Source: Patescibacteria group bacterium (GTDB lineage: Bacteria; Patescibacteriota; Patescibacteriia; Buchananbacterales; UBA6539). From it: a stretch of DNA of 64,000 nt. The notes beneath the pieces are model-generated. The model ran no database searches, was not told the origin of the DNA, and saw nothing but the letters and a program-made list of their open reading frames with translations. Position numbers and translations under genes: made by a program. The stretch covers positions 58,643 to 122,642 of the forward strand of contig JAVEXP010000003.1 of NCBI GenBank assembly GCA_034003985.1, written 5' to 3'. Below are positions 1 through 62,155 of the stretch, piece by piece. How positions within the stretch are numbered: the stretch's first letter is position 1; every line of letters begins with the position of its first letter.

Positions 1-174
1 TTTCTTAGTCAATCGTCGCAAACTGTTATCGTGAACCACAACCGGATGTTTATCTTTAGTAATTCTAATGTCCATTTCCACCATATCAACTCCCAATTCC
101 AAGGCTTTACGAAAAGAGGAAATGGTATTTTCCGGTGCATAAGCCTTAGCGCCCCGATGACCGATTTTTAACAT
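1..174 (-). CDS. Glycerophosphodiester phosphodiesterase (GDPD family), N-terminal part only; gene continues past the left window edge
   Basis: Reverse-strand translation from ATG (revcomp of 172-174) gives MLKIGHRGAKAYAPENTISSFRKALELGVDMVEMDIRITKDKHPVVVHDNSLRRL. This is the canonical GDPD N-terminal HR(G) catalytic motif and the E..D.R divalent-cation motif. Confidence 0.65.
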   Translation of the reverse strand, partial: MLKIGHRGAKAYAPENTISSFRKALELGVDMVEMDIRITKDKHPVVVHDNSLRRLTKK

Positions 175-206
175 AATAATTCAAAGACTCTTTCAATAAT
201 AAACAC

Positions 207-280
207 TGGACAATGCTGGACTCGAACCAGCGACCTTCGCGATGTGAACGCGACGCTCTAACCAACTGAGCTAATTGTCC
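207..280 (-). tRNA. tRNA-Val (anticodon CAC)
   Basis: Revcomp folds as a cloverleaf: acceptor GGACAAT/ATTGTCC, D-arm AGCTCAGTTGGTTAGAGC, anticodon stem TCGCG/CGCGA with loop TTCACAT, T-arm GGTTCGAGTCC, discriminator A. CCA is not encoded. Confidence 0.8.
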
Positions 281-282
281 CT

Positions 283-345
283 GGTCATGACGGGCAGGTG
301 TGAACGCGACGCTCTAACCAACTGAACTGGCAATCGCTGATAACG
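283..345 (-). pseudogene. Degenerate duplicate of the 5' half of tRNA-Val (D-arm plus anticodon arm only, no T-arm)
   Basis: A 26-nt exact repeat gtgaacgcgacgctctaaccaactga occurs at 245-270 and again at 299-324. In the second copy the D-stem is mutated (AGTT instead of GAGC) and no TpsiC arm follows. Confidence 0.5.
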
Positions 346-560
346 GGCCGGGACTAAACTAATTGCCCAAACTTTAAGTAATAACTACGGAAAAAAAATA
401 AAGCGTTGGGTTCACGGTACACCTTCAATATTACGCTAACTTGGTGTATGCCCACAATAAATATGTTATCATTGAGAATATAACACAAAAAATTCAATAA
501 TTCAAGTCAAAAAAATATTGCCAACAGCTTGGTTTTGTGTCACAATAATAGCACCAAACT

Positions 561-1982: not shown

Positions 1983-3388
1983 ACCAAAAAATAACCATCA
2001 ATCAAAAATTACCAACGGTGGTAATCGTTGGTCGGATCAATGTCGGCAAATCAACCCTGTTTAACCGATTAACGGAAACCAGCAAGGCAATTATTTCACC
2101 GATTGAGGGCACAACCCGCGACTACAATCTAGGACAAGTGGCCTGGCGCAAAAAAATCTTTAACTTGATCGACAGCGGCGGAGTTAATATTGATATTCTC
2201 CAAAATAGCATCGTCAATCTGATTAACGAAAAACCGCTCCAAAACCTTAAACCAAATATAATTGAACAAGAAATAATCAAACAAACCAAAACTGCGCTAG
2301 CCAAAGCTAATTTAATAATTATGGTCACCGACGGCAAAACCGGCGTATTGCCCGAAGACCGACAGTTGGCGATAACTTTAAAAAAAATGGCCAAGCCGGT
2401 GATTTTGGTGGTCAATAAAATTGATCGGCAATCTCAGGCCGCTAGTACCGCCGAATTTTTCAAACTGGGACTCGGCAAACCTTGGCCGGTATCGGCCGCC
2501 AGCGGCAGCCAAGTCGGCGACTTTTTGGACGAATTGGTAAAACAAATAAAATGGCCGCGGGGACGGCAACCCAATGTTAAGGATCAAACGGCAATAAAAG
2601 TGGCTTTAATCGGCAAACCAAATGTTGGCAAATCATCATTGGTCAATAAAATGTTAGGTGAAGAACGAGTAATTGTTTCACCGCTGGCACAAACCACCAG
2701 AGAACCTCAGGATACCGAAATTATTTTTGACAAACAACACATTATTATAATTGATACGGCCGGACTGAGAAAAAAAACCAAGGTGCACGAAACTTTGGAG
2801 AAAATCGCCACCAAAAAAACTCAAAGGATGATTGAACAAGCCGACATCGTTTTATTGGTGACCGAAGCCAACGAGCCGCTGGCTAAACAAGACGCTTACC
2901 TGGCCGGATTATTGAAAGACCAGGGAGTGGGAGTAATTGTTGTCGCCAACAAATGGGACTTAATTGCGAACAAGACTACCAACACCGACCAACAGGTAAA
3001 AAATTATTACCAGGGTGAATTTGCCTATTTAAGTTTTGCACCATTGATTTTCGTCTCCGCTCAAACCGGCAAAAATGTCGACAAAATTCTGCCGCTGATT
3101 TTGGAAGTAAATCAAGAAAGCACCAAAAAAGTAAGCCCCGAAGATCTGGAAAAATTGACAACCGCGTTAGTTAGACATCACCGCCCGGCCCAAGCCAAAG
3201 GCAACAGCCGACCAAAAATTTATGGCCTGACCCAAAGCGGCGTCAAACCACCGACTTTCACAATTACCGTTGGACCCAGACAAAGCCTCCACTTTTCTTA
3301 TATACGATTCATCGAAAATCAATTGCGCCACAACTTTGGCTTTAAGGGTATTCCTGTTAGAATAAGGACAAGAAGCCTAAAACAATAA
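1979..3388 (+). CDS. der: Ribosome-biogenesis GTPase Der (EngA), two tandem GTPase domains plus a KH-like domain
   Basis: The ATG overlaps the upstream TGA stop (ATGA). Two P-loops are present (GRINVGKSTLFN and GKPNVGKSSLVN), with DTAG and NKxD motifs in each domain. Confidence 0.9.
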   Translation: MNQKITINQKLPTVVIVGRINVGKSTLFNRLTETSKAIISPIEGTTRDYNLGQVAWRKKIFNLIDSGGVNIDILQNSIVNLINEKPLQNLKPNIIEQEIIKQTKTALAKANLIIMVTDGKTGVLPEDRQLAITLKKMAKPVILVVNKIDRQSQAASTAEFFKLGLGKPWPVSAASGSQVGDFLDELVKQIKWPRGRQPNVKDQTAIKVALIGKPNVGKSSLVNKMLGEERVIVSPLAQTTREPQDTEIIFDKQHIIIIDTAGLRKKTKVHETLEKIATKKTQRMIEQADIVLLVTEANEPLAKQDAYLAGLLKDQGVGVIVVANKWDLIANKTTNTDQQVKNYYQGEFAYLSFAPLIFVSAQTGKNVDKILPLILEVNQESTKKVSPEDLEKLTTALVRHHRPAQAKGNSRPKIYGLTQSGVKPPTFTITVGPRQSLHFSYIRFIENQLRHNFGFKGIPVRIRTRSLKQ

Positions 3389-7390: not shown

Positions 7391-9612
7391 TGAAGGGAAA
7401 AAATTTGGTGATTGTTGAATCACCGACCAAGGCCAAAACTATTTCAAAATTTTTGGGGTCCGAATACAAAATCGAATCCTCTTTTGGTCATATCCGCGAT
7501 CTGCCAAAAAGCAAACTGGGAGTTGATGTTGAACACAACTTTGAACCCCAATATGTCATTCCCACCAAATCGCGCCAGCGAGCCAATGAATTAAAAAAAC
7601 TGGCCGACAAAGCCCAGACGATTTATTTCGCAACTGACGAAGACCGCGAAGGCGAAGCCATCTCCTGGCATTTGGTTAATATTTTTAAGACTCCCCAGGA
7701 TAAAGTTAAAAGAATTGTTTTTCACGAAATTACCGAAGAAGCAATCAAAGAAGCTTTAAAAAATCCGCGGACATTGGATTTGAATTTAGTTGACGCCCAA
7801 CAGGCCAGACGAGTCTTGGACCGGCTGGTCGGCTACCAGCTCTCCCCGTTCTTATGGAAAAAGGTGGCGCGCGGCCTTTCGGCCGGACGGGTTCAATCAG
7901 TGGCAGTCAGACTGATTGTTGAACGCGAACGAGAAATTCAAGCTTTTAAACCAGAAGAATATTGGAGTATTGAAAGTATTTTTGAAGCCCAGGGCACAAA
8001 GTTTGAATCTAAACTCCATAAAATTAAAGATCAGGTTATTGATAAGCTGGAGATCAAAAATCAGGCTCAGGCTGAAAATATTATTAAAGATTTAACAGGC
8101 GCCAAATACCAAATCGAAAAAGTCGAAAAACGCCAAACCAAAAAGCGGCCGCTACCGCCTTTTACCACTTCCACCTTACAACAGGCGGCTAACGCCCGCT
8201 TAGGTTTTTCGGCCAAACAAACGATGATGCTGGCCCAACAATTATATGAAGGTATCGAGCTTGGTTCCGGCGGCGTTGGTTTAATCACCTACATGCGAAC
8301 CGACTCTTTGAATTTGGCCCAAAAATTCCTAGACGAAGCCGGCAATTATATTAAAGATAAATTCGGCAATAATTACCACGACGAACCCAAACGATACAAA
8401 GCCAAATCAAAGTTGGCCCAAGAAGCTCATGAAGCAATCAGGCCAACTCTGGCCGAAAATGCACCGGAAAAAATCAAACCACATTTAAATGAAAGGCAGT
8501 TCAAGCTGTATCAGTTGATTTGGCAGCGAGCCATTGCCAGCCAAATGGCTGACGCGATCACCGACAACACCACTGTTGACATCAAAGCGGCCGATACGGT
8601 TTACACTTTCCGCAGCACCGGTTCGGTTATAAAATTTGACGGCTTTTTGAAAGTTTACCCAACCAACACCAAAGAAAATATTTTGCCCGATGTTGAAGAA
8701 AAAGATCAAGTCAATTTGGTTGAGCTTAAGCCGGAACAGCATTTCACCCAACCACCGGCCAGATATTCGGAAGCCACGCTGGTCAAAGCTTTGGAAGAAT
8801 ACGGCATTGGCCGACCGTCAACTTACGCGCCGACCATTTCCACCGTCCAAGATCGAGGGTATGTTGAAAAAGAAGACAAGCGCCTTAAACCAACCGACAT
8901 TGCTTATTTGGTAAACGATTTGCTGGTTGAACACTTCCCCGAAATTGTCGACTATAAATTCACAGCCAATATGGAGGATGACTTGGACGAAATTGCCGAG
9001 GGTAAAAAGAAATGGCAGCCGATTATCCACGAATTCTGGGGGCCGTTTAAAACCAACTTGGACAAAAAAGAATTGGAATTAGACAAAAAGAAATTGACCG
9101 AAGAAAAAACCGATGAAGTTTGCGAGAAATGCGGTAAACCAATGGTAATTAAAATTGGACGGTATGGAAAATTCTTAGCTTGCACCGGCTATCCGGACTG
9201 TAAAAATACCAAGCAGCTTGGCGGCGAAGGCAATGAACCACAAACTCCAGAAGTAACCGGCGAGACCTGCCCGGACTGCGGCAAGCCGTTAGTCAAACGC
9301 CGTGGACGCTTTGGCGAGTTTGTCGGCTGCAGCGGTTATCCTGATTGTAAATATATTAAAAAAGAAGCAGCTCAAACTTTTGGCACTTGCCCGAAATGCG
9401 GCAAAGGTAAAATTGTTGGCAAACGCAGCCGCCGCGGATTTTTCTATGCTTGCGACCAGTACCCGGAATGTAAAAATGCCTTATGGGGCAAGCCACACAT
9501 TAAAGAAGGAAAAACTGAACCAGAGACTTGCCCGGACTGCGGCGCAATTTTAGTGGAAGGCGGCAAAGACGCAATTAAATGTAGCAATAAAGATTGCAGC
9601 TATAAAGAATAA
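7390..9612 (+). CDS. topA: DNA topoisomerase I with multiple C-terminal C4 zinc ribbons
   Basis: A Toprim N-terminus (VIVESPTKAKTI) and the active-site region ITYMRTDS are present. There are four or five C-terminal CxxC..CxxC zinc-ribbon repeats (CEKCGKPM..CTGYPDCKN, CPDCGKPL..CSGYPDCKY, CPKCGKGK..CDQYPECKN, CPDCGAIL). Confidence 0.9.
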   Translation: MKGKNLVIVESPTKAKTISKFLGSEYKIESSFGHIRDLPKSKLGVDVEHNFEPQYVIPTKSRQRANELKKLADKAQTIYFATDEDREGEAISWHLVNIFKTPQDKVKRIVFHEITEEAIKEALKNPRTLDLNLVDAQQARRVLDRLVGYQLSPFLWKKVARGLSAGRVQSVAVRLIVEREREIQAFKPEEYWSIESIFEAQGTKFESKLHKIKDQVIDKLEIKNQAQAENIIKDLTGAKYQIEKVEKRQTKKRPLPPFTTSTLQQAANARLGFSAKQTMMLAQQLYEGIELGSGGVGLITYMRTDSLNLAQKFLDEAGNYIKDKFGNNYHDEPKRYKAKSKLAQEAHEAIRPTLAENAPEKIKPHLNERQFKLYQLIWQRAIASQMADAITDNTTVDIKAADTVYTFRSTGSVIKFDGFLKVYPTNTKENILPDVEEKDQVNLVELKPEQHFTQPPARYSEATLVKALEEYGIGRPSTYAPTISTVQDRGYVEKEDKRLKPTDIAYLVNDLLVEHFPEIVDYKFTANMEDDLDEIAEGKKKWQPIIHEFWGPFKTNLDKKELELDKKKLTEEKTDEVCEKCGKPMVIKIGRYGKFLACTGYPDCKNTKQLGGEGNEPQTPEVTGETCPDCGKPLVKRRGRFGEFVGCSGYPDCKYIKKEAAQTFGTCPKCGKGKIVGKRSRRGFFYACDQYPECKNALWGKPHIKEGKTEPETCPDCGAILVEGGKDAIKCSNKDCSYKE

Positions 9613-9626
9613 AAATCAGCTAAACA

Positions 9627-9655
9627 AAAAATCCCGCGACAGCGGGATTTTTTGT
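9627..9655 (+). terminator. Rho-independent terminator of topA
   Basis: Stem ATCCCGC, loop GACA, stem GCGGGAT, followed by a TTTTTT run. Confidence 0.7.
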
Positions 9656-10063
9656 ATCCTTAACAAAAGTTTAGTTAGGTCATAAAATTGCGGCCATTGA
9701 ATAAGACACGACGGACAGCGCCAGATAAACCGGCAAAACAATTGTTGCGGTCAGCACGGTAAAGGCGCGAGTAATGTCAAAATCCATGTCTTGAGCCTGC
9801 TGGAGTTGTTGGCAATCCATAAATTTTTGTTTTTATTTTTTAGTTTCAATTTTTAAGGTTCAAAAAACACGGCTAAACCAAAGTTGTAATTGCGTCCGAA
9901 AGCCGTGTTCTACTTTTTTGGTTTTTTGTTTTATTTAGCCCACAAAATGTTTAGGGGCAAACGCTGCTGGTATTAACCAGTCAGGCAATCTAAAAAGATA
10001 GGGGTTCCCTATCTCAATATAATCAGTATAGCACATCTAAATTTTTTTGTCAAGATTTTAAAA

Positions 10064-10105
10064 TAAAAAAAGACCGGCGCATCGCTTGTTTGCAACGCGC
10101 CGGCA
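10064..10105 (-). terminator. Rho-independent terminator of the GC-rich secreted-protein gene
   Basis: GC-rich stem GACCGGCGC...GCGCCGGC with a 16-nt loop, followed on the minus strand by a T-run (A-run 10064-10071 on the + strand). Confidence 0.65.
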
Positions 10106-10155
10106 CTAAAGAGTTTGACTGTTTTTCGACCTTCAAAGGGTCGATAGCAGCACTG

Positions 10156-11571
10156 CTACTGAATGGGAATGGTGAGGTGAGCCAACGGCTCTACCTCGTT
10201 GCCCGCGCCGTCGGTAAATACCGGCGGACGATTGATGCAGGGGACCTGCCCGCACATTTCGGCGACGGTGTCGGACTGCACCAAGAACAACTCCAGACGA
10301 ACCGCGTCCGAATCCGGCGCAAACGAGATGTCCCAGGTTCCACCGACAATCGGCGAGTAGGCCTCGTCGCCGAAGTTCGGCTTGGCGTAATACGCCTCGT
10401 AGGTTCCGCCGTCACCGTCCGGGTGCTGGGTTACCGAGAACAGCACCAGATCGGCGCAGTTGGCCAAGGACTCAAGGTCCGGGCCAAAAATAACGCCATG
10501 CGACTGCGTGCCGTCGACTTCCGTCGAGAATAAAGTGTACTCGTTGAGATACACCTGCTCGCACGGAAGCAGCTCTCCTTCGCCTTCTCCTTCGCCTTCG
10601 CCCTCACCGGACACATCTTCCTCAAACACGGCTCGCACGGTCTTGTCGCCATCCACGGTTAAGGTGGTAGGATTGGTGGTGCCGGAGACATCCCCCTCCC
10701 AGTGGTCAAAGCGCCAACCAAAGCCATGAATGGCCCAGACTTGCACTTCGGTGCCAGCAGAAAAGTCACACACATGGGCATAGCCACATGGTGCGGGGTC
10801 CGTGGATATTGATCCATCGCCAACGACTTCCTTGGTGACGGTAAAGGTTTGGGTCTCACCTTCGCCCTCACCGGACTCAACACCGGTGACGGTAACGCTC
10901 TGGGAGCCCAACTGGCCGCAGTCATTGCTGACCACGACATACCAAGTCTGAGCCTGGTTGGTAACCCCCACCGAGAGAGGACTGGCGTCTATCGGGCCGA
11001 GAGACAAACCATCTTCTACCCGCCGCCATGAATACATCAGCGTTGGCGTTCCAGTTGCCTCAACATCCAGCGTCACCGTTTCGCCGACCATGGCTTCAAC
11101 CGACTGAGGTTGAACCGTGATTTGTGGCGCTTCGCACTCACCTTCGCCCTCACCTTCCGAGGAACAAGGGCCGGTGGAAACCCAGATCTGAACGGTCACA
11201 CCCGCTTCCACCTCCTGGCCCTGCCCGGGAGAACAGGCAAAAACCACTCCCGGCGCGACATAGTCATGACATTCGTGGGTCACGCTCGTTTGGAAACCGA
11301 GCAGCTCCAACGAAGTCCGAGCCTGGGCTTCCGTCAGTCCCAGCAACACGGGCACCATCACGGCATCCGACTGCCCGGGGCAAAAGCCGTCTTCTGTGGC
11401 TTCGGTCGGGCAATAGTGATACCCGTCCGAGTTGAAGAACTGGATGACGCGCAACAGCTCCGAGAGTTCGATGCGGCTGTCCTCGTTGATATCCGCATCA
11501 TGAAACACCTGAGCCTGCGCCGGGGCCATCATGAAGACGGCCGTCATCACTGCCAAGAACAATTTTCTCAT
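10156..11571 (-). CDS. GC-rich secreted multi-domain surface protein: signal peptide, EF-hand/dockerin-like Ca-binding motif, PASTA domain, I-set Ig-like domain and InlB B-repeat domain, joined by (GE)n linkers
   Basis: A signal peptide MRKLFLAVMTAVFMMAPAQA is preceded by an AAAGGGAAAG RBS. The Ca-binding motif reads DADINEDSRIELSELLRVIQFF. The PASTA-like region reads LGLTEAQARTSLELLGFQTSV...VTVQIWVS. The Ig-like domain reads PQITVQPQSVEAMVGETVTLDVEATGTPTLMYSWRR...WYVVVSNDCGQLGS. The InlB-B-repeat-like domain reads GDGSISTDPAPCGYAHVCDFSAGTEVQVWAIHGFGWRFDHWEGDVSGTTNPTTLTVDGDKTVRAVF. SGEGEGEGEGEGE linkers join the domains. Codon usage is strongly GC3-biased, unlike neighbouring genes. Confidence 0.7.
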   Translation of the reverse strand: MRKLFLAVMTAVFMMAPAQAQVFHDADINEDSRIELSELLRVIQFFNSDGYHYCPTEATEDGFCPGQSDAVMVPVLLGLTEAQARTSLELLGFQTSVTHECHDYVAPGVVFACSPGQGQEVEAGVTVQIWVSTGPCSSEGEGEGECEAPQITVQPQSVEAMVGETVTLDVEATGTPTLMYSWRRVEDGLSLGPIDASPLSVGVTNQAQTWYVVVSNDCGQLGSQSVTVTGVESGEGEGETQTFTVTKEVVGDGSISTDPAPCGYAHVCDFSAGTEVQVWAIHGFGWRFDHWEGDVSGTTNPTTLTVDGDKTVRAVFEEDVSGEGEGEGEGEGELLPCEQVYLNEYTLFSTEVDGTQSHGVIFGPDLESLANCADLVLFSVTQHPDGDGGTYEAYYAKPNFGDEAYSPIVGGTWDISFAPDSDAVRLELFLVQSDTVAEMCGQVPCINRPPVFTDGAGNEVEPLAHLTIPIQ

Positions 11572-12296
11572 CGCACTTTCCCTTTTTGTTACTAACCAGA
11601 CCACCACGACAAACCCTATTGCCGCAACGGACTAGCCATTTCTGAATTGTATATGGGCACTAACCAAGCACTCCTAGAATTTAATTTCTAGGACTTAGTT
11701 AGAATCTTACTTTTTATCATAAAATCAATATTTTGTCAATAGCAAGCATTATAAATCACTAATTTTAGCAAATTTACTCCATAATAAAAGCGGCCGAAAG
11801 AGAGTTAAACCCCGAAACTTTGTTGATGCTAGGGTGCTCCTTTCGAGCCGCAAAATCATAATACCATAAAAATTGGCTGATACAAAAATAACGGGTCGTT
11901 GGCGATTTGCCGCTGACCCGTGATTTGACCTGTTGTCTCAGTTTTTTCCCGTTTTTAAAGCGGTGCGGGCGCCGCTTCTATTTTTTTGTCTGCACTCTAG
12001 GGCAATCAAGATGGGCAGATCTCTAGCCCATAGCGCAAACGCGGATAGCTTAGCGATCCGCTAAATCGCCAGGCAAATTAAGAGAGGCTCAAGCCTCTCC
12101 CCCGGGGCCGCCTGGCCCTCCCCGAGTTACTGGGTGCTCTTGTGCATGGACCCTCCTCCCTCATCAGTTGTTGAAAGCTTCACCAAAACCACAGCAATTA
12201 GCAGACTAACAAAAAACACCAACCAAGTCAATAATATTTACAGCTATGGTAAAGACGGCTAAGATAAAAGCAACCACACTAAACGGAGGAGTGCCA

Positions 12297-12473
12297 ATGA
12301 AGAATACTGATGATGGCGACAAATCATTGGATTTTTACAGCCTACTGGAAGAGGGAATGTTTGCGGAGGGACAACAGTGGCCTTGGTTTGAATGCCCAGA
12401 TTTGCGGTTCAGACATCAGCTGAACCAAAAGACCTTGAGATCAATTCCTCAGACAGCAGACTATTCAAACTAA
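12297..12473 (+). CDS. Small hypothetical protein (58 aa) in a GC-elevated region
   Basis: ATG is preceded by GGAGGAG at a 6-nt spacing. The product is MKNTDDGDKSLDFYSLLEEGMFAEGQQWPWFECPDLRFRHQLNQKTLRSIPQTADYSN. A perfect 13-bp hairpin follows immediately (12480-12508). No recognisable domain. Confidence 0.35.
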   Translation: MKNTDDGDKSLDFYSLLEEGMFAEGQQWPWFECPDLRFRHQLNQKTLRSIPQTADYSN

Positions 12474-12479
12474 ACTAAT

Positions 12480-12508
12480 GGGCCCGGTTGGCAAAGCCAA
12501 CCGGGCCC
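12480..12508. terminator. Perfect 13-bp GC-rich hairpin (GGGCCCGGTTGGC-aaa-GCCAACCGGGCCC), likely a bidirectional terminator or insulator
   Basis: Read directly from the sequence. No strong T-run on the + side. Confidence 0.5.
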
Positions 12509-12739
12509 TCATTAATTGAACGAAAAGAAACCAACAAAAAAATAAGTTATAAAGAAAACACCTCGAAGTAAAACCACAAGGTGTTTCCCAAGTTTCTAGG
12601 TTATACCTAGCATCAACAAACCAATCCTAGCACAACTCTTAATTTTTGTCAAGCTTTAACCGAATTTAAAATCATCCATCAAAATTGCTTTTTGGGCTTA
12701 AGTCTTTTACAATAACTAAGGCGAATAAATAAAAAATCC

Positions 12740-14263
12740 ATGCCAACAATTGATGATTTGATAAAAGCCCTAAAAAACGGCGATGGTCAAAGAAACCAGC
12801 CAAAAATCCCCTTCCCCAACTTCAATCGGAATAACAAGAATGGGTATGATTTTGATTTCATTAAATTAGCCTACGAATACTCCGAGCAGGCCCATCATGG
12901 TCAAACGCGCAAATCCGGCGAGCCATATATTCAGCATCCTTTGCGAACCGCCATTCAATTGGCCAACATGAAGCTTGACCAAGCAACAATTATCGCCGGA
13001 TTATTACATGATGTTCCCGAGGACACTGACTACAGTTTGGTTGATATTGAGAAAAATTTTGGCCCCGAAATCGCCAAATTGGTTGGCGGCATCACCAAAC
13101 TTGGCATCATTAAATATCGTGGGATTGAGAAATATGCGGAAAATCTGCGCAAGATGTTTGTCTCCATGGCCCAGGACATCAGAATCATCCTGATTAAGAT
13201 GGCCGATCGACTGGACAACTTGCGAACCCTTGATGCCTTGCCCAAAGAAAAACAAAAACGGATTGCGGCTGAAAGCCTGGAAATCTATGCCCCGATTGCC
13301 AACCGTTTGGGTATGGGATCAATCAAAGGTGAAATTGAAGACTTGGCTTTTCCTTATGTTTACCCGGAAAAGTACCAATGGCTGGAACAAGAAATCATAC
13401 CAGCCATTAAAGTTGAAATGGAATACATCCAAAAAGTAATCAAAACCATTGAAAAAGAACTCAGACAAAATAAAATCAAGATTGTTTCGATTCATGGCCG
13501 GGCCAAACGGCTTTACAGCCTCTACCGCAAATTGATCAGGCCGCAATACGACGGCGATGTCTCCAAAATTTATGATTTGGTGGCTCTAAGAATACTGGTC
13601 CCAACCGTCGGCGATTGTTATCACGCTTTGGGAATTGTCCATGAAAATTGGAAACCTCTGCCGGGCAGAATTAAGGACTACATTTCCCAGCCAAAACCAA
13701 ACGGTTATCAATCACTACACTCCACCGTTTTTGGTCCGGAGGGCAAGATTGTCGAAGTTCAAATCAGGACTCCAGAAATGCACCATCAAGCCGAGTTTGG
13801 TATCGCCGCCCACTGGCACTACAAAGAAACCAATCATAGATCAAAAAAACTTGGCGACAAGGGCTATACCCTGCCAAAAAAATTGGACTGGGTCCAAGAT
13901 TTGGTAAAATGGCAGGAAGAAATCAGGGACAACGAACAATATCTTAAAGCTCTGACTTTGGATTTTTTCCAGAATCGAATTTTTGTTTTCACTCCCAAGG
14001 GTGATGTCATTGACCTGCCTGAAAATGCCACGCCGGTTGATTTTGCTTATCATGTCCACAGTTGGATCGGCGATCATTGTGTTGGCGCCAAAATCAACGG
14101 CCAAATAACCAGTCTGGATGATAAATTAAAAAACGGCGATGTCGTCGAAATCATCACCGATAAAAATCGCAAAGGCCCCAGCCGGGACTGGCTTAAATTT
14201 GTCAAAACCGGCGCAGCCAAAGGAAAAATCAAATCAAAATACCTCAGCCAGATAATCGACTGA
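12740..14263 (+). CDS. rel: Short RelA/SpoT-homolog (p)ppGpp synthetase/hydrolase with HD, synthetase and TGS domains, lacking the C-terminal ACT/regulatory region
   Basis: The HD motif HHGQTRKSGEPYIQHPLRTA...LLHDVPEDT is followed by the synthetase region RAKRLYSLYRKL...DLVALRILV and the TGS domain FVFTPKGDVIDLPENATPVDFAYHVHSWIGDHCVGAKINGQ. The 507-aa length ends about 40 aa after TGS. Confidence 0.8.
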   Translation: MPTIDDLIKALKNGDGQRNQPKIPFPNFNRNNKNGYDFDFIKLAYEYSEQAHHGQTRKSGEPYIQHPLRTAIQLANMKLDQATIIAGLLHDVPEDTDYSLVDIEKNFGPEIAKLVGGITKLGIIKYRGIEKYAENLRKMFVSMAQDIRIILIKMADRLDNLRTLDALPKEKQKRIAAESLEIYAPIANRLGMGSIKGEIEDLAFPYVYPEKYQWLEQEIIPAIKVEMEYIQKVIKTIEKELRQNKIKIVSIHGRAKRLYSLYRKLIRPQYDGDVSKIYDLVALRILVPTVGDCYHALGIVHENWKPLPGRIKDYISQPKPNGYQSLHSTVFGPEGKIVEVQIRTPEMHHQAEFGIAAHWHYKETNHRSKKLGDKGYTLPKKLDWVQDLVKWQEEIRDNEQYLKALTLDFFQNRIFVFTPKGDVIDLPENATPVDFAYHVHSWIGDHCVGAKINGQITSLDDKLKNGDVVEIITDKNRKGPSRDWLKFVKTGAAKGKIKSKYLSQIID

Positions 14264-32874: not shown

Positions 32875-33008
32875 ATAATTCAATTTCAACGAAGTGATAA
32901 AATTACCGCTAACGGGCTTGAGCGGTTTTTTTGATTTGACAAACAATATTTTCGGTGATAATTTGACCTTGGTTTCAAGGGATCAAACACTTACTGGGAG
33001 GATTGAAG

Positions 33009-55647: not shown

Positions 55648-57132
55648 TCACTTGGTGGGCGGCACGGCCTTATTGGTGTTGAACCACTCATCGTGACTGG
55701 CGCGAAGATCTTGCGTCAGCCCGTCGATGTGGTCCGTTTGGGATCCCCAATTGCTTGGGTACCCAAGCCGGGAGCGAATGCGAGACTGGCGGGTCTCCAA
55801 GCGCCGAGACTGATCGGCACCCAGTTCGACTCGGTCGACCTTGACCAAGCGGCCATCTCGTTCACCCGTGAATTCCAGGTGTTCGAGCGGCAGCTGGATC
55901 TGCTTAGGCGCAACCGCGATCTGCCCGCTAGCCTTGGGGTCGACAACCGACACGAAGGTCAGCCAAACCCCGTCGTTCCAAGACTGTTGATAGGTTCCCG
56001 GGGGCAGGAACCAACCATCGGCTTGGGCCTTGGAAGTTTTGGCCTCTTCCTCGTCGTTGAGGCCGACCCAGTCCTTCCCCTTCTCCCAAAGGCCGAGGGG
56101 AGAAACAATGGACTTGTGAGCCGGTTTGGGATCGGGAATGGTTGGCGCGCTGCCGGGGTTGCGAAGGATGGAATAAACCATTCCAACGACTACGCCAAGC
56201 AGCAAAACAGCCAAGACCAGCCACAATTTTGGCCGGTGGTGAGTTGCCACCGTTCGGCCCTGATCATCCAGATTGACCAGAACCAGAGGTTCAGCGGTGC
56301 CACCAGGGCGATCATCTTCGCCCCAGAACTCTTCGGCGCTGGCACCACCGGTTCCCAACGGCTGGGGACCAAGGTCCGAAGCGTGCCCGAAGGGATCGGC
56401 CAAGGCTTCCTTGTCAGGATCACCTGACTCGCCTCCCCAGACATCATCGAAACGAGGGTGCGGTCCAGAGTCTCGCCCCAGGTCGGAATCAGAAAAGGGT
56501 GGAAGCGATTCAGGGCCATTATCCTGGTGGAGTTCACCATCACTTCCTTCGTCAAAAACCGGCAGCCCCTCTTCATCGGCATGGTCGACATCCTGGTTGG
56601 CATCACCAGGGTCGAGTGTCGGTTCAGGCCACAGAGAATCCGGATCTTCAGCCTCAACAGCTTCTTGTTGGCCTTCGGCTTGTTCCGAATCAGATCCCAA
56701 CCCTGCAAGCAGAGCATCCAAATCCTCTGGCGAAAGCGAAGTCGGTTCAAGGTCATCCTCCTGAGGCGGAGGGCCAGTTTCTTCATCAAGAACCGGCAAA
56801 CCCTCTTCGGCAGGTTCGACATCCTGGTTGGCATCACCAGGGCCGAGCGTCGGTTCGGGCTCGGGTGGTAGTGGGAGCGTGTCCCAAATCAGATAATTTG
56901 CCAGCACCTCGCTGTTGACATACGGCAAATTCTGAAAGGCCACATCTTTTTCCACCTCTTCAAAGACATAGCCCCAACCGTCATCTTGGAGTCCAGCGAC
57001 TTCTGTGGTAAAGATGTCGCCAAACCCCTGAGCAGCCAAGTAAGTTTTGATCTCCTCGTCGGATTTGAAACCGTCGAGAATCTCTCCCTTTCCGGCCGCC
57101 CGAAAAACCTCAATTACTTGTTGAGCCTGCAT
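55648..57132 (-). CDS. GC-rich hypothetical membrane protein: N-terminal cytosolic domain, tandem acidic Pro-rich repeats, one TM helix and a ~190-aa extracytoplasmic domain
   Basis: RBS AAGGAG overlaps the upstream gene's stop. The repeats read EPTLGPGDANQDVEPAEEGLPVLDEE and EPTLDPGDANQDVDHADEEGLPVFDEG. TM helix LWLVLAVLLLGVVVGMVYSIL. The terminator CCAGCCGC..GCGGCTGG+T-run lies at ~55575-55612. ~60% GC. Confidence 0.6.
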   Translation of the reverse strand: MQAQQVIEVFRAAGKGEILDGFKSDEEIKTYLAAQGFGDIFTTEVAGLQDDGWGYVFEEVEKDVAFQNLPYVNSEVLANYLIWDTLPLPPEPEPTLGPGDANQDVEPAEEGLPVLDEETGPPPQEDDLEPTSLSPEDLDALLAGLGSDSEQAEGQQEAVEAEDPDSLWPEPTLDPGDANQDVDHADEEGLPVFDEGSDGELHQDNGPESLPPFSDSDLGRDSGPHPRFDDVWGGESGDPDKEALADPFGHASDLGPQPLGTGGASAEEFWGEDDRPGGTAEPLVLVNLDDQGRTVATHHRPKLWLVLAVLLLGVVVGMVYSILRNPGSAPTIPDPKPAHKSIVSPLGLWEKGKDWVGLNDEEEAKTSKAQADGWFLPPGTYQQSWNDGVWLTFVSVVDPKASGQIAVAPKQIQLPLEHLEFTGERDGRLVKVDRVELGADQSRRLETRQSRIRSRLGYPSNWGSQTDHIDGLTQDLRASHDEWFNTNKAVPPTK

Positions 57133-57143
57133 GGTTCATCTCC

Positions 57144-58025
57144 TTATTCCGCGGCGCGGATTGTCAGGACAACGACTTGCTTGCTTGGGGCCAAGCCCGA
57201 CAAGCGAAACTGAACAGTGGCACTACCCTTGATGTGGGGTAGTTTTTCGGTTGGGACTTCTCGCCAACCTTCACCATTCAGATTCCAGCTCAGGCCACAG
57301 CTGTCGGCAAAACCCAGACTATACTGAATCTGTTCCCGAATGGCAAACGCCAGCTTGGGCGTTTCCTGTCCGGGTGCCACCTCCACGGCCCACTTTTCCA
57401 GGACTTGCGACTCCTCTTTGGGAACTGCTTCCCAGCGCGGAGCCTGATTCTCGAGAGGTTCGTTACTGACGGCATCACGGGCCAACCAGCACAAGCTCTC
57501 TTCCTTGTAGGGTGGGAGCGCAACCCAACAGTAGGTCGTCAGATCGCCGGGGAATGTCCGCGATGCCCCGGGATAGTAGCGAACTACATCGCCGGGCTTA
57601 GCGATCTTTCCCTCAATCGGATTGTGGCGATCATCATAGACCACCGCGGCCGAGACTACCGCTCGGACCGAGTAATTGGCAATCCGGTCACCAATCTCAC
57701 CCGCGTCCAAGTTGACCCGGCTGACCTCGTGGTCGACCAGAGCGGCTTCGCGGTCCAGTTGGCTGTTGGCCAACTGCTGACGCGAGCCTCGGTAGTGTTC
57801 GACAATGGCACGAGCCTCGGGCGAGGTTGCGGCCAGCTTGTCGAGCTCGTCATTGCGGACTTGCTCAACGCTGGTCTGCTTGCCCCAGCCCGCATAGCTC
57901 TTGTACCAAGGCCAGGCTTTCGGCAAAACCAGAAACGCGCCGATCACCACCGCGATCCAAAATACCGACACCAAGAAATTCCATGTCCGTGCCTTCGCTT
58001 CAACGCTCATGACGCTTTCCTCCAC
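57144..58025 (-). CDS. GC-rich hypothetical single-pass membrane protein (293 aa)
   Basis: RBS GGTGGAGGAAAG is followed by ATG. N-terminal TM FLVSVFWIAVVIGAFLVLP. Translationally coupled to the downstream 494-aa gene (stop inside the next RBS). Confidence 0.55.
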   Translation of the reverse strand: MEESVMSVEAKARTWNFLVSVFWIAVVIGAFLVLPKAWPWYKSYAGWGKQTSVEQVRNDELDKLAATSPEARAIVEHYRGSRQQLANSQLDREAALVDHEVSRVNLDAGEIGDRIANYSVRAVVSAAVVYDDRHNPIEGKIAKPGDVVRYYPGASRTFPGDLTTYCWVALPPYKEESLCWLARDAVSNEPLENQAPRWEAVPKEESQVLEKWAVEVAPGQETPKLAFAIREQIQYSLGFADSCGLSWNLNGEGWREVPTEKLPHIKGSATVQFRLSGLAPSKQVVVLTIRAAE

Positions 58026-58130
58026 CGGAAAAGTCCGGTTTGTTTGAAGTTCCGTTCAATACCAAAATATATATTCACAGGTTGTCAAAGACCTGATTAA
58101 TCGCTAATCGCACATTGATTAGGATTATAT

Positions 58131-58159
58131 ATTTTATCATATTTTAGATAATTTGTCAA
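58131..58159 (-). promoter_or_regulatory. Near-consensus sigma70 promoter driving the GC-rich B-C operon (TTGACA-17-TAAAAT; TATGAT also present)
   Basis: Minus-strand sequence TATTGACAAATTATCTAAAATATGATAAAATAT lies in a ~300-bp stretch of <25% GC between two ~60% GC genes. Confidence 0.5.
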
Positions 58160-58329
58160 TAAATTACTTAAAAAACAAACTAAAAAATAATAATAATTTT
58201 GGCTAAAATTAAATAAATATTAATGATTAAATTTTGATTATTTAAAAAATAGTAAATTTAGCTAAAAAAGAAGGCGGGCATTCGATTGCTCGTTTGCCCG
58301 CCGTGTTAATGGAAGGATGATTGTGAGGG

Positions 58330-60162
58330 TTACTTTTTTTCACCCTCTTTACCACGGCGATCCTTGTCGCCTCCCCGTTGCTCGCCCTTGCCGCGATCTC
58401 CTCGGTCGCCCTTGCCACCACCACGGTCATCCCGCGGTTTAGTGCTGCGATCACCGGACTGCGGACGAGGACGGTCGGTGCGGGGACGCTGCTGGCCTTC
58501 GGCGCGTGGTGGAGTTGGATCACTCAATCCAGCCAATCCTCGGTAAGTTGCCATCAGACTGACAAGGTCAGTCTGGGCACCACCCGGAGTGGTCACCACC
58601 GTCAGGTTGCCAGTCTTACTGGCAATAGTCCCGGCCGCGTCAACTGCCAAGATTTCATGCCCGCCAGGCGAATTGATTGCCTTGGCGCGCTCGCTGATTG
58701 AGTACGCCTGCGCGTCAGCGAGAATCATTGTCGCCTTGGCGTCGCCAGTGGCTTCGTTGGCCTTGGCCGCGGCTTTGGCCAAAGCGGCCTTGGCATCCTG
58801 CACTGACCGGGCCAGCGATGTATTGCTGGGTTCCAGATCCGTAACCTGGGCATCGTAGAGAAGAAAACCGAATTTCTCCATGATTACCGCGGCCGGTGAT
58901 TCCGCCGGAAACGAATCGACCAGAACAATGTTTCGGCCTTGCATTTCCAAGCGGGGACGAATCGGCCGGGTATCCTGATCGTGGTTGACCGTCGGACTGT
59001 ACCCGTCAAACGGCGGAGCCACCAACTTCAGCTTCCAGGCCAAAACGCGATGGGCCTGAAGCTGGATAATCGGATTGAGTTCCAAAGCCCCGAACTCGTT
59101 CTTGGCCTTCTTCTTACTCCTGGCCTTGGCCGAGTCGGCGGCATTAGCCCCAGCTTCGCTGCCAGCATCCTCTTCCGCTTCGTCGGTCTCGTCGACATCC
59201 CGTTTGGCAAAATAGCGCAACGATGCGACCACCTGGCGCCAGCGCGCCAAAATGATGTTGCGCGTCGCTTCAATCGGGAAGTCGGCGCCAAACACTGCCA
59301 GATAAGGATCCCAAACCACCGCTCGGAGGAACAAGTCCGCCGAAATGTCGATTGGGTCAGCGGTGCCCGAATCAGGCACTACGCCGCCGGCTTTGATTTC
59401 GCGCAGCCAGTTCCAGGTGCGCTCGGTGAGGTCGAGGTAACGAACCGGCTGCTTACTGGCACTTTGGACATCGCTGTCCTTTTCATACCAAGGCGGTGCC
59501 ATCTTGTAGCGCCACGGCCAAACCGTAACGCCAAGAAAGTATAGGCCCTTACCCGGAGGTAACAGCACATACCGATCCTTGGTTTGCATCTGGGCGTTGC
59601 GAAGCCTTACCAACAGCTGGTAATGCTTGCGTTTTTCCGGGTCGCTGGTATTGATAATGATCTTCCAGATACCCTTGTCGCCCATGATAAAAGCGGCACG
59701 GTTTTCCGGGACCATCACCCACCACCAGCCCAGTTCGCCCATCGGCCGCAGCATCGGCTGGCTGCTGAAAAACACCAACAGTCCGCCGACCAAGCCAAAG
59801 CCAATCAAAGCGAGCGGGCCAAATGGGTAGTCAAACGACGAGACACCCACCAAACCCAAAACGATGAGGAAAAGACCGCCGAAGACAAAGGCAAAGTACT
59901 GCCAAAAGTCTCGGCGATAGCCGTCCAACTCGTGCCAGATTTCTTCCTCGCCAGGGTTGACCTTGCGCGAAAGACTCTTGCGCTCCACCGACCAGGCGCC
60001 AGTCAGAATGCCGGCAATGCAGATGCCGCCAGCCAGCGCCAGGCTGCCAAACGGCTGCGGGGTGAACAAAAACAACGCCACCGCAATAATCAGGGTTGCC
60101 ACCAGTTTGGCAACCAGGTTGCCGCTCTTGCTAGCAACCTTCTCATCAGACTTATTAGCCAT
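58330..60162 (-). CDS. GC-rich SPFH/band-7 (flotillin-like) membrane protein with two N-terminal TM hairpins and a C-terminal Ala-rich coiled coil plus an RGD-rich disordered tail
   Basis: Consensus RBS AAGGAGG 7 nt before ATG (revcomp 60160-60162). The SPFH-like core reads VMVPENRAAFIMGDKGIWK...YFLGVTVWPW...ISADLFLRAVVWDPYLAVFGADFPIEATRNIILARWRQVVASL (cf. YqiK IVPQGEVGVVTRFG...VDAVVYYRVTDP...LAQTTLRSVIG). The tail is RPRTDRPRPQSGDRSTKPRDDRGGGKGDRGDRGKGEQRGGDKDRRGKEGEKK. The terminator GGCGGGCA..TGCCCGCC+T7 lies at 58264-58300. Confidence 0.6.
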   Translation of the reverse strand: MANKSDEKVASKSGNLVAKLVATLIIAVALFLFTPQPFGSLALAGGICIAGILTGAWSVERKSLSRKVNPGEEEIWHELDGYRRDFWQYFAFVFGGLFLIVLGLVGVSSFDYPFGPLALIGFGLVGGLLVFFSSQPMLRPMGELGWWWVMVPENRAAFIMGDKGIWKIIINTSDPEKRKHYQLLVRLRNAQMQTKDRYVLLPPGKGLYFLGVTVWPWRYKMAPPWYEKDSDVQSASKQPVRYLDLTERTWNWLREIKAGGVVPDSGTADPIDISADLFLRAVVWDPYLAVFGADFPIEATRNIILARWRQVVASLRYFAKRDVDETDEAEEDAGSEAGANAADSAKARSKKKAKNEFGALELNPIIQLQAHRVLAWKLKLVAPPFDGYSPTVNHDQDTRPIRPRLEMQGRNIVLVDSFPAESPAAVIMEKFGFLLYDAQVTDLEPSNTSLARSVQDAKAALAKAAAKANEATGDAKATMILADAQAYSISERAKAINSPGGHEILAVDAAGTIASKTGNLTVVTTPGGAQTDLVSLMATYRGLAGLSDPTPPRAEGQQRPRTDRPRPQSGDRSTKPRDDRGGGKGDRGDRGKGEQRGGDKDRRGKEGEKK

Positions 60163-60288
60163 GCGAGTTCCTCCTTGCCTGTCAGCAGACAGGCGGGTTG
60201 ATTCAAATCGGTCGAACCGAATTTCCTTCCAGTTAAATTGCCAATGATCTATACAAACACCCATTGAATCACAATGAGGTGATTTTAT

Positions 60289-60317
60289 ATCATACCAAAA
60301 TTCTAATATTTTGTCAA
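60289..60317 (-). promoter_or_regulatory. Consensus sigma70 promoter (TTGACA-17-TATGAT) driving the SPFH gene
   Basis: Minus-strand sequence CTATTGACAAAATATTAGAATTTTGGTATGATATAAAA. The first 16 nt are identical to the promoter of the 10.2-11.6 kb GC-rich gene (11717-11739). Confidence 0.55.
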
Positions 60318-60394
60318 TAGAAAATCTAAAATTAAATAAAAACAACCCCCTAGCTAAGAGGGAGCAGATATCTGTTAATTAATTTTACACGATA

Positions 60395-60799: not shown

Positions 60800-60816
60800 A
60801 CTATTTTAAGTATAAA

Positions 60817-61620: not shown

Positions 61621-61720
61621 ATTTTCAGTATAACATGTTTTAAAGATAAAAAAATAAGGGGGAGACCGGAAGTGACTTTTCACTCCGGCTCCCCCGAGAC
61701 TGCTTGGAAATCGCGACGGG

Positions 61721-61906: not shown

Positions 61907-62155
61907 GATCTTCTCTCCCGTTTTGAACCTGAGTTAATGTAATGACAGAATGATTCAGACGCTCAGCGTTCAAACGGCGGATCGTGCGATTTTGCCGACA
62001 TGGCAACCCTCCTTATGGTTTTGTTTCTCCTGCCAAGGCAGCCCAGTCAGCACTGTGGACTACCTATATAAAATACACCATACCAAAAATTGACCTTAAT
62101 GTCAAGGTTAACTAAAAAACGGCGGCTGATTCCGCCTGTTTTTTAGTTAGAATAA

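Follow-up and report, generated by a model that had tools for sequence, protein, structure and literature searches.

In the long leaders of some mRNAs for envelope and secreted proteins, such as the 5' UTR of E. coli ompA and the aprE leader of B. subtilis, 5'-terminal stem-loops stabilise the transcript. Genomes may also carry cell-envelope genes in hypervariable islands, called 'flexible' or metagenomic, and variable surface-protein genes can lie behind expression sites that are conserved. For Patescibacteria (CPR bacteria), to our knowledge, almost nothing has been learnt experimentally about transcription signals. Three properties of promoters are well established elsewhere: TRTG is the Gram-positive form of the extended -10 element (-17 TRTG -14), -35/TGn promoters compensate for a poor -10 element, and some very strong promoters carry all four elements, UP, -35, TGn and -10 (PMC2613000).

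The three promoters described here, P1, P2 and P3, lie in a 64,000-nucleotide stretch of DNA (the window, always taken at its full length). They share with sigma-A/sigma-70 extended -10 promoters, and with all-four-element promoters such as those of the phage T4 early genes, the TTGACA hexamer, the 17-bp spacer, TRTGn, A/T-rich upstream DNA and, in P2 and P3, TAnnAT. The differences are that the host is an uncultivated Patescibacterium, close to Ca. Buchananbacteria, and that two A's after the -35 element and an A-tract in the spacer are conserved as well. The predicted transcripts resemble those of ompA and aprE in having long leaders, a stable hairpin starting only a few nucleotides in and envelope-protein genes downstream, but they are unrelated to these in sequence and match no Rfam family. 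The likeness to hypervariable envelope islands lies in a syntenic position, strongly divergent content, envelope products and conserved upstream expression signals. Unlike those islands, however, the B-C-D island is GC-richer, not GC-poorer, than its genome, and the variation observed separates species rather than strains or copies in one genome; neither silent cassettes nor a recombinase came to light.

Promoters, leaders and terminators

The initial annotation had placed a minus-strand promoter ahead of each of three GC-rich transcription units, and all three were found where it had put them (Table 1). P1 precedes gene A and P2 gene B, while P3 heads an operon of genes C and D, the start of gene D lying 11 nt past the end of gene C. 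The sequences are TTGACA-aaatattgattttaTGa-TAAAAA for P1 (11739-11711), TTGACA-aaatattagaatttTGg-TATGAT for P2 (60317-60289) and TTGACA-aattatctaaaataTGa-TAAAAT for P3 (58159-58131). The -35 hexamer therefore matches TTGACA at six of six positions in each, and the spacer is 17 bp (sigma-70 range 16-18, optimum 17), as it is in all 15 orthologous promoters. The extended -10 element reads TATGa in P1 and P3 and TTTGg in P2.

Table 1 Features of the window discussed in the text, in order of position
Feature	Position	Strand	Description
Terminator after gene A	10073..10104	-	intrinsic; 13-bp stem and T run
Gene A	10156..11571	-	secreted multidomain protein, orphan; GC 0.585
Gene A leader (predicted)	11572..11705	-	~134 nt; strong hairpin near 5' end; -41.9 kcal/mol, z -3.9
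P1	11711..11739	-	-35 TTGACA 11739-11734, 17-bp spacer ending TGa, -10 TAAAAA 11716-11711
P1, alternative register	11745-11740, 11721-11716	-	TTGCTA, 18-bp spacer, TATGAT
Palindrome-like element TTGCTAAAATTAGTGA	11756..11771	-	contains CTAAAATT/AATTTTAG; 16 nt before P1 -35
Promoter-like site	32936..32964	+	TTGACA-17-(TGa)TAATTT ahead of ORF 33003-33485 (GC 0.49)
Gene D	55648..57132	-	acidic repeat region, TM segment, C-terminal domain; no known domain; GC 0.574
Gene C	57144..58010	-	single-pass membrane protein, no known domain; GC 0.583
Gene C leader (predicted)	58011..58125	-	~115 nt; 5' hairpin; second hairpin before GGAGG site
Conserved block of gene C leader	58095-58078	-	CAGGTCTTTGACAACCTG
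P3 (C-D operon)	58131..58159	-	TTGACA-17-(TGa)TAAAAT; conserved B/C promoter class
Second exact copy of 15-mer TTTATTTAATTTTAG	58203..58217	-	43 nt before P3 -35
Hairpin and T run after gene B	58264..58302	-	GGCGGGCA...TGCCCGCC TTCTTTTTT; read from sequence as terminator
Gene B	58330..60162	-	membrane protein, N-terminal TM helices, SPFH/Band-7 domain, basic low-complexity tail; GC 0.559
Gene B leader (predicted)	60163..60283	-	~120 nt; begins AUCACC, 5'-terminal hairpin; AGGAGG before ATG
P2 (gene B)	60289..60317	-	TTGACA-17-(TGg)TATGAT; conserved B/C promoter class
Upstream 15-mer TTTATTTAATTTTAG	60326..60340	-	8 nt before P2 -35
Terminator after T4SS-type pilin gene	60345..60365	-	intrinsic; separates lgt-pilin unit from P2

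Both the A at -11 and the T at -7 expected of a -10 hexamer occur in P2 and P3, and in P1 solely by way of the alternative register. In the 17-bp register of P1 the key T at -7 is missing, which is why the promoter scan had passed over this register and given TTGCTA-18-TATGAT instead. Apparently strong promoters of sigma-70 type do head the GC-rich units, but P1 is less close to consensus than had been claimed, again because TAAAAA lacks that T. With its perfect -35 hexamer, TG and poor -10, P1 is like the -35/TGn promoters E. coli gapA P1 and T4 Pminor, from which it differs in having a second register.

The 16-mer CTATTGACAAAATATT, said to be identical in P1 and P2, occurs exactly twice in the window, at these two promoters, and P3 matches it at 13 of 16 positions. 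In a search of the window TATTGACAAA was found exactly at P1, P2 and P3 only. A further sequence that had been given as common to all three, TATGATAAAA, is exact in P1 and P3, but P2 has TATGATATAAAA in its place. TATGA sits within the spacer in P1 and P3, its TG forming the extended -10; in P2, TATGAT is the -10 hexamer itself.

Predicted leaders are 115-135 nt long in the window and about 75-165 nt in related genomes, and that of gene A has a purine-rich GGGAAAG stretch upstream of the ATG. Over their first 45 nt, transcripts from promoters of the class described below fold with a mean of -9.9 kcal/mol (z -1.9), against -4.7 kcal/mol (z +0.15) for the transcripts of 12 other promoters (p = 7e-4 and 3e-4). 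The gene C leader is 92.9% identical over 28 nt to that of a relative (locus L013), and C leaders have a conserved CTTTGACAA block at about +45. RNAalifold predicted no consensus fold for this block; by eye, six genomes keep a CAGG/CCTG stem, but the one compensatory change in it is too little to establish a fold. The block has no role in the model of strong promoters and stabilising leaders put forward below. No leader matched Rfam at gathering score, and at E <=1 there was no relevant match in 9600-12750 or 57950-62200. A known riboswitch or leader family is therefore not supported by the covariance models. Structural RNA genes were rejected as an identity for the GC-rich blocks, which have no Rfam matches and consist of long ORFs with Pfam domains and homologues.

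Terminators mark off the separate transcription units. The placing of the promoters, behind terminators and in front of genes, is consistent with predicted starts 6-8 nt past the -10 element under the housekeeping sigma factor. The hairpin after gene B has too long a loop for the terminator scan and was recognised by reading the sequence.

The B/C promoter class in related genomes

A matrix was built from the B and C promoters of other genomes, and sites scoring above about 30 bits were assigned to the class. P2 scored 44.9 bits and P3 39.6 bits, while the next-best site in the window scored 17.1 and the maximum in 40 shuffles was at most 13.9. P1 scored 12.5-14 bits, in the range of generic promoters. 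The TTGACA site at 32936-32964, which the initial annotation had reported ahead of a GC-elevated orphan, is present on the plus strand but falls outside the class, its score being under the 8-bit reporting cut-off. Location gives the same division: P2 and P3 lie directly upstream of a B- or C-family gene beside lgt, usually with a pilin gene, and P1 precedes the orphan gene A.

All 15 B/C promoters from other genomes have the form TTGAC(A/T)-17-TGnTAnn(A/G)T, and the positions of high information are the -35 hexamer, the two following A's, TRTG, the -10 hexamer and a purine start. In leave-one-genome-out and held-out searches class promoters were recovered at 33-47 bits, the exception being the L013 B promoter (15.1), and almost no other sites scored in about 300 kb. 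When the DNA of loci L013 and L017 was compared by blastn, homology vanished in the B, C and D coding regions, and the C promoter and leader, 81.8% identical over 154 nt, was the best-conserved DNA of the locus. Blastn was used in preference to a global comparison of leader and coding-sequence identity, which was discarded as uninformative since gapped global alignments inflate identity.

By these sequence comparisons P2 and P3 are members of a single, distinct class of promoters, conserved as orthologues. The class is also present in locus L026, where gene B is not GC-rich, and therefore goes with the gene and not with GC content. The suggestion that the promoters are a cassette duplicated during domestication is not supported for P2 and P3, which appear ancestral and orthologously conserved, even at this B gene of ordinary composition.

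Composition and context of the GC-rich genes

The GC contents of genes A to D (Table 1) stand against 0.38-0.49 for all other ORFs in the window. By codon position GC is 0.65/0.45/0.65 in the GC-rich genes and 0.49/0.36/0.45 in the others, and AAG use is 0.74 versus 0.24. The composition is therefore deviating, as would be expected of a recent island, and the genes had been called foreign. For B-C-D this reading did not survive the comparison with related genomes. At least 10 related CPR loci (L010, L011, L013, L014, L017, L020, L021/22, L024, L025 and L026) have gene B linked to lgt, usually along with the T4SS-type pilin gene. PPDK is also nearby where the flank was recovered, and C and D are present where the contig extends far enough. 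Amino-acid identity across these relatives is 28-37% for B and 20-33% for C, D is barely alignable, and flanking genes are 53-81% identical. B, C and D are GC-enriched in most, not all, of the related loci.

An exhaustive search with the core of B, covering 1.84 billion proteins, uncovered a family of 61 representatives; the 12 genomic contexts that were inspected were all CPR-type loci, and one member is named as a Ca. Buchananbacteria SPFH protein. Word-index searches with full-length B, gene C and the C-terminal domain of gene A returned only the query itself or nothing, and no homologues elsewhere were detected for C, D or that domain. The AlphaFold model of gene B is poor (pLDDT 49). No donor lineage, and no closest homologue outside the host clade, was found. 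Neither unit has an integrase or transposase beside it, flanking direct repeats or an adjacent tRNA gene, and the only repeats at the borders of the GC-rich units are the promoter regions themselves. On this sequence evidence B-C-D appears not to be a recent import.

Other origins of the GC-rich blocks were considered and rejected. At both AT/GC junctions the window is matched with 100% identity by Logan contigs of SRR25572339, which excludes an assembly chimera. Codon bias from high expression, in its simple form, does not account for the composition, as the L20, IF3 and SmpB genes keep AAA and GAA while the islands also use CAG at 0.72; the islands and the host do, however, have the same GCC, GGC and ACC preferences. 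There were no meaningful PHROG or NCBIfam matches and no viral contig for gene C to suggest a phage or defence origin.

Gene A is a different case. It combines a signal peptide, a dockerin-like motif, PASTA and Ig domains, an InlB B-repeat and GEGEGE linkers. It was found in its own organism only, and no relative of its locus was retrieved.

Explanations for the likeness of the promoters

The explanation that we consider probable is that P1-P3 are maximal-strength promoters of the housekeeping sigma factor (sigma-70/sigma-A type) which, with stabilising leaders, would serve abundant envelope proteins, and are not a foreign cassette. They would combine a perfect -35 hexamer (usually TATTGACAAA), the optimal 17-bp spacer, a TRTGn extended -10, a -10 hexamer and A/T-rich flanks, presumably the strongest promoter form of this host. 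P2 and P3 would be ancestral, as promoter, long leader with 5' hairpin and GGAGG site precede B and C(-D) in relatives. The module would most likely keep abundant envelope proteins expressed constitutively and at a very high level, the strong promoter providing for initiation and the 5' hairpin for mRNA stability, a function that we infer from the position and stability of the hairpins. It is proposed that P1-P3 look alike because selection for maximal strength keeps promoters near one optimum. P1 itself would be of -35/TGn type with a poor -10, having acquired the -35-proximal half and upstream A/T element of P2 and P3 by convergence or partial copying.

The cautious fallback of the initial annotation, that the likeness reflects only strong sigma70 consensus, was largely right, since the conserved positions are known RNA-polymerase contact elements. 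Promoters upstream of tRNA genes and others close to the tmRNA gene, which are presumably strong too, are without TG and without AAA after the -35, however, and so strong forms would exist besides the one optimum. The rarity of the 16-mer of P1 and P2, the own-genome neighbours of P1 and the presence of AATTTTAG upstream of all three hint at a shared ancestry or factor beyond polymerase contacts.

In a broader proposal, possible if unlikely, promoter and leader beside lgt and the pilin gene would form a fixed, conserved expression site in Buchananbacteria-like CPR bacteria. The envelope genes behind it would turn over or diverge extremely fast, their anomalous GC of about 0.5-0.6, almost regardless of a host GC of 0.31-0.46, being kept by repeated cassette replacement or recombination-linked biased gene conversion, and gene A would have picked up part of the promoter.

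It seems doubtful to us that P1-P3 descend from a single sequence copied by duplication or recombination. P2 and P3 would have been homogenised by gene conversion and P1 copied ahead of a newly acquired gene A; more broadly, exchangeable cassettes of GC-rich envelope genes would sit behind a fixed site of promoter and leader. The exact 16-mer of P1 and P2 would fit, as would the 71% identity of P2 and P3 over 51 nt, with the exact upstream 15-mer displaced by an indel, the near identity of the B and C promoters in L011 and the orphan status of gene A. Hypervariable coding regions behind a conserved promoter and leader would also be expected, and in L006 a class promoter of 44.5 bits is followed by a non-homologous GC-rich block of three membrane-protein genes, with an unchanged placement relative to cupredoxin-RNR. 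This is the one case of replacement found, however, and its contig stops at the promoter. Population variants behind the window's own pilin gene were not found, a search with the identical gene returning the same contig only, and no mobility genes or direct repeats bound the units. Over six genomes, pairing B and C promoters within a genome gave no greater likeness than pairing them across genomes (21.0 versus 20.3 of 43 positions; p 0.30), and general concerted evolution is therefore rejected. Of 18 class promoters, those closest to P1 are P3 and P2, the two from its own genome (1/153 by rank), so that P1 may be a partial copy of them, but it fails the class matrix and its resemblance to P2 and P3 appears to lie mainly in the -35 half.

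It also seems improbable that a DNA-binding protein co-regulates P1-P3 through upstream AATTTTAG/CTAAAATT, or TTGCT-N6-AGCAA near -60, such that part of the likeness is an operator or activator site and not polymerase contacts. Three of the 12 occurrences of AATTTTAG in 64 kb are upstream of P1, P2 and P3, at most 60 nt away, and the 7-mer lies upstream of seven of 20 class promoters and none of 17 others. The enrichment (p 0.0075) fails correction for the number of k-mers tested, though, and the choice of motif was in part post hoc. In about 297 kb TTGCTAAAATTAGCAA, with up to two mismatches, was found only upstream of P1 and of the C promoters of L021/L022 and L017, the L021/L022 copy being at the same 16-nt distance from TTGACA as in P1, and the CTTTGACAA block of the C leaders could be a second site. 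Against a positioned operator, the distance from motif to -35 varies (in the window 8, 22 and 43 nt, elsewhere 16-37 nt), as does orientation. Many class promoters (L011, L020_B, L022_B, L025, L026) are without the motif, UP elements would account equally well for A/T-rich tracts upstream, and the cluster has no regulator gene linked to it.

Finally, the view that any near-consensus promoters in A/T-rich intergenic DNA would look this similar, with neither a class nor a gene association, is very improbable and for P2 and P3 largely refuted: the matrix from other genomes sets these two more than 22 bits apart from all other promoters in the window and recovers held-out orthologues, and their relatives include the best-conserved DNA of the locus. 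The striking similarity first claimed for P1-P3 is nevertheless only partly above the background of the window. The exact 16-mer is rarer than a position-specific, column-independent promoter model predicts (p ~0.002 for 136 pairs; ~0.006 by column shuffles), but 16-mer matches with up to three mismatches are not enriched (3 versus 1.7 expected). P1 and P2 are the top pair in flank identity at 14/22 (mean 7.1, sd 2.3), nearly equalled by an unrelated pair of other TTGACA promoters at 13/22. The TTGACA-17-TG architecture is general in the window and genome, TTGACA-N14-TGnTAnnnT having 17 matches in the window against 1.15 expected, and a TTGACAA start is, as had been remarked, common among host promoters.

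The promoter type is thus ordinary; what is noteworthy is its setting, a nearly unchanged promoter and leader before very fast-evolving genes. The locus offers a clean, comparatively validated example of a candidate maximal-strength CPR promoter and leader, of use in annotation, in reading metatranscriptomes and in building tools to express genes in those few CPR bacteria that can be cultivated. It also corrects the reading of B-C-D as foreign genes: they appear to be a lineage-wide, syntenic, fast-evolving envelope module. That the GC excess persists in most, not all, relatives alongside conserved expression signals is a real but separate evolutionary question. The proteins of this module are candidates for abundant surface components of episymbiotic cells.

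Architecture of P1-P3 and their mutual likeness

Upstream of each of the minus-strand promoters P1, P2 and P3, which precede the secreted-protein gene A, the SPFH/Band-7 gene B and the operon C-D respectively, lies a terminator or A/T-rich spacer, and downstream lies one GC-rich unit. The GC content is 0.585 for A, 0.559 for B, 0.583 for C and 0.574 for D, against 0.38-0.49 in every other ORF of the window. The initial annotation had described the three promoters largely correctly. Exact copies of the 16-mer CTATTGACAAAATATT stand at P1 and P2 alone, P3 matching at 13/16 positions, and in the window exact matches to TATTGACAAA are confined to the three sites. TATGATAAAA, said to occur in all three, is exact in P1 and P3 but not in P2. 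Registers were also mixed: TATGAT in P2 is the -10 element proper, and the TG of P1 and P3 belongs to an extended -10 with the hexamers TAAAAA and TAAAAT. The P1 -10 lacks the T at -7, which is why the scan tool did not list its 17-bp register and offered TTGCTA-18-TATGAT instead.

The architecture is in wide use, TTGACA-N14-TGnTAnnnT giving 17 matches in the window against 1.15 expected. Among 18 TTGACA sites the closest pair outside the hexamer is P1-P2 (14/22; mean 7.1, sd 2.3), yet an unrelated pair made up of other TTGACA promoters reaches 13/22. The probability of an exact 16-mer in any pair is ~0.002 with position-specific frequencies and 0.006 by column shuffles. The P1/P2 identity is therefore genuine but modest.

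Features of the window, with scores against the B/C promoter matrix
Feature	Position	Strand	Sequence or content	Score (bits)
P1	11739-11711	minus	TTGACA-aaatattgattttaTGa-TAAAAA	12.5-14.0
P2	60317-60289	minus	TTGACA-aaatattagaatttTGg-TATGAT	44.9
P3	58159-58131	minus	TTGACA-aattatctaaaataTGa-TAAAAT	39.6
Scoring site	17004	plus		17.1
Scoring site	4197	minus		16.8
TTGACA site below gene A	10053	minus		8.1-8.6
Other TTGACA promoters				<8
C-leader block	58078-58095	minus	CAGG-yCTTTGACAA-CCTG then ATATA(G)A	
317-nt unit, GC 0.53	11880-12196	minus	TTGACT-17-(TGt)TAGTCT promoter (12231) to hairpin and T-run terminator	
Short unit	12555-12652	minus	TTGACA-17-(TGc)TAGGAT promoter, then ~65-nt transcript	
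Unit directly after gene A terminator	9655-10053	minus	near-consensus TTGACA-17-(TGc)TATACT promoter, 5' hairpin GAGATAGGG/CCCTATCTT, 46-aa hydrophobic ORF (9820-9680), terminator	
1279-aa protein	21404-25243	minus	pretoxin-HINT/Vint, DUF4215 and CarboxypepD_reg-like domains	
Small basic ORF, 61 aa, GC 0.597	61721-61906	minus	flanked by PPDK and lgt; promoter 62105 lies upstream	

Several other features of the window were recorded. The 317-nt unit just upstream of gene A (fold -118 kcal/mol, z -3.2), which has no ORF and no Rfam match at E <=1, is a candidate structured RNA. The ~65-nt transcript holds nothing but two hairpins, one small and one a strong terminator (z -5.0), and may be a small RNA or decoy unit. 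The transcript following gene A is convergent with the 3' end of topA. The domains of the 1279-aa product suggest a polymorphic-toxin-type surface protein. An Rfam search of the GC-rich regions returned zero families.

A promoter class in related genomes

In other genomes, all B and C promoters follow TTGAC(A/T)-17-TGnTAnn(A/G)T, and TATTGACAAA is present in five of six C promoters. A scoring matrix was built from 13-15 of these B/C promoters, with the window excluded and a reporting cut-off of 8 bits; over 40 local shuffles its null maximum was <=13.9 bits. Leave-one-genome-out and held-out tests recovered B/C positions at 33-47 bits, the exception being the B promoter of the related locus L013 (15.1). 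Beyond these positions almost no sites scored in ~300 kb, apart from one in locus L004 and the head of a GC-rich block in L006, a related Patescibacterium (136-3008; GC 0.54-0.57 against ~0.41). This block, at the same position upstream of cupredoxin-RNR, holds three membrane-protein genes non-homologous to B/C/D; a class promoter scoring 44.5 bits and a GUCAC 5' hairpin stand at its head.

When L013 and L017 were compared by blastn, homology was unbroken across PPDK-lgt-pilin and the B promoter, and the B/C/D coding DNA was essentially without homology; the best-conserved DNA of the locus was a 154-nt patch (81.8%) that is exactly the C promoter and leader. B- and C-type promoters also cross-match between genomes: P2 matches the C promoter of L013, and P3 the B promoter of L020. 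P2 and P3 are members of a separate class of promoter plus leader, which is deeply conserved and goes with an envelope gene module that is hypervariable and anomalous in GC. P1 resembles them only in part.

The conserved positions of the class (-35 hexamer, TRTG, -10 hexamer, A/T-rich discriminator, purine start and A/T-rich upstream DNA) coincide with known polymerase contact elements, as defined in PMC2613000, TRTG being the form that the extended -10 takes in Gram-positives. The alternative first offered, that the likeness reflects strong sigma-70 consensus, was thus essentially right, and the promoter type itself is already known.

P2 and P3 agree at 71% over 51 nt and have the exact 15-mer TTTATTTAATTTTAG upstream, at differing distances from the -35; of 18 class promoters, P3 and P2 come closest to P1. 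AATTTTAG/CTAAAATT lies <=60 nt upstream of P1, P2 and P3, accounting for three of its 12 copies in the 64 kb, and upstream of 7/20 class promoters against 0/17 others (p 0.0075, uncorrected). The palindrome-like TTGCTAAAATTAG(C/T)(A/G)A stands 16 nt before TTGACA at P1 and the L021 C promoter and, allowing <=2 mismatches, is otherwise found only upstream of the L017 C promoter in ~297 kb. Such signals could reflect a regulator site common to the promoters, but, unlike a positioned operator, the upstream element has no constant distance or orientation, and many class promoters lack it. Partial promoter copying, or exchange of expression-site cassettes, might also produce them; general concerted evolution, however, is opposed by B-C likeness being no greater within genomes (21.0/43) than between them (20.3/43; p 0.30). 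With these contrary points weighed, both are therefore kept as minority readings beside the conserved class.

The B-C-D module and its GC-rich genes

The host is a Patescibacterium; its RNR has 61-69% identity to that of MAGs carrying the label Ca. Buchananbacteria or Patescibacteria, and lgt has a T4SS-type pilin gene beside it. Across both GC-rich regions the window agrees at 100% identity with Logan contigs of SRR25572339, and chimeric AT/GC junctions were therefore ruled out. The product of gene A, seen in its own organism alone, is secreted and has PASTA, Ig and InlB-B-repeat domains with GEGEGE linkers. That of B is a membrane protein (SPFH/Band-7), and those of C and D are membrane-anchored without a known domain.

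An exhaustive search of 1.84 billion proteins showed the B family to be small (61 representatives, top identity 40%), one member being annotated 'SPFH domain-containing protein [Ca. Buchananbacteria]'. Synteny is consistent at all members with recovered flanks (L010, L011, L013, L014, L017, L020, L021/22, L024, L025, L026), the order being PPDK-lgt-pilin-B-C-D in most and lgt-B-X-pilin in more distant loci. Identity between genomes is 53-81% for PPDK, Lgt and pilin, against 28-37% for B and 20-33% for C, with D barely alignable. By this shared synteny and the low identity relative to the flanks, B-C-D is an ancestral envelope module that evolves very fast. The proposals that these genes are foreign and that their promoters are a domestication cassette are unsupported for B-C-D, the B family being syntenic across related loci and the B and C promoters conserved orthologs.

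The GC content of B/C/D against the flanks is 0.58-0.64 against 0.35-0.41 in L020, 0.53-0.55 against 0.37-0.40 in L013, 0.49-0.55 against 0.38-0.40 in L017 and 0.52 against 0.31-0.34 in L025; in L011 GC3 is 0.62-0.66 against 0.17 for the pilin gene. Enrichment is weak in L024 and absent from L026 and L019. Genes A-D keep the host preferences GCC/GGC/ACC at four-fold codons, and their two-fold codons are shifted relative to all other window genes (AAG 0.74 vs 0.24, CAG 0.72 vs 0.43, NNC up), a shift not seen in L20, IF3 or SmpB. Plain mutational shift and the usual high-expression codon bias were therefore both excluded as the source.

The 61-aa basic ORF of the window is a further small GC-rich gene, overlooked in the initial annotation. 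The slot between PPDK and lgt also holds small ORFs in L020 (77 aa, GC 0.56), L024/L025 (82 aa), L013 and L017. GC-rich intergenic DNA (0.50-0.56) lies upstream of lgt in L020 (2484-3105) and L024 (934-1206), loci otherwise AT-rich; the small basic ORF accounts for some of this DNA, and some is possibly structured RNA. L025 comes from a relative very rich in AT, its PK, PPDK, lgt and pilin genes having GC 0.31-0.34; the pilin gene there adjoins a gene with a VWA domain (10669-12747), headed by TTGACAaattttataaaaaagagtTAATAT, which is likewise enriched in GC (0.47).

Leaders and a possible mode of expression

Within their first 45 nt, the predicted class transcripts fold into stable hairpins located at the 5' end or close to it. 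The mean is -9.9 kcal/mol (z -1.9), and 12 other promoters average -4.7 (z +0.15); the differences have p = 7e-4 and 3e-4. Leaders are ~115-135 nt long in the window and ~75-165 nt in relatives; those of B type start RUCAC, and both B and C leaders have GGAGG-type sites at the 3' end. The C-leader block is kept in six genomes (the window, L011, L013, L017, L020 and L021), with 92.9% identity to L013 over 28 nt and a stem with one compensatory change; RNAalifold gave no consensus fold for it.

Promoter and leader would together form a module that drives abundant envelope proteins to high expression, in which maximal initiation, a predicted property like the start sites, may be combined with putative stabilisation of the mRNA by the 5' hairpin. 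The leaders of ompA and aprE stabilise their transcripts by 5' hairpins, and it is in this putative property that the class leaders would resemble them. The feature worth pursuing is that conserved expression signals occur together with coding regions that evolve fast and a GC excess that persists.
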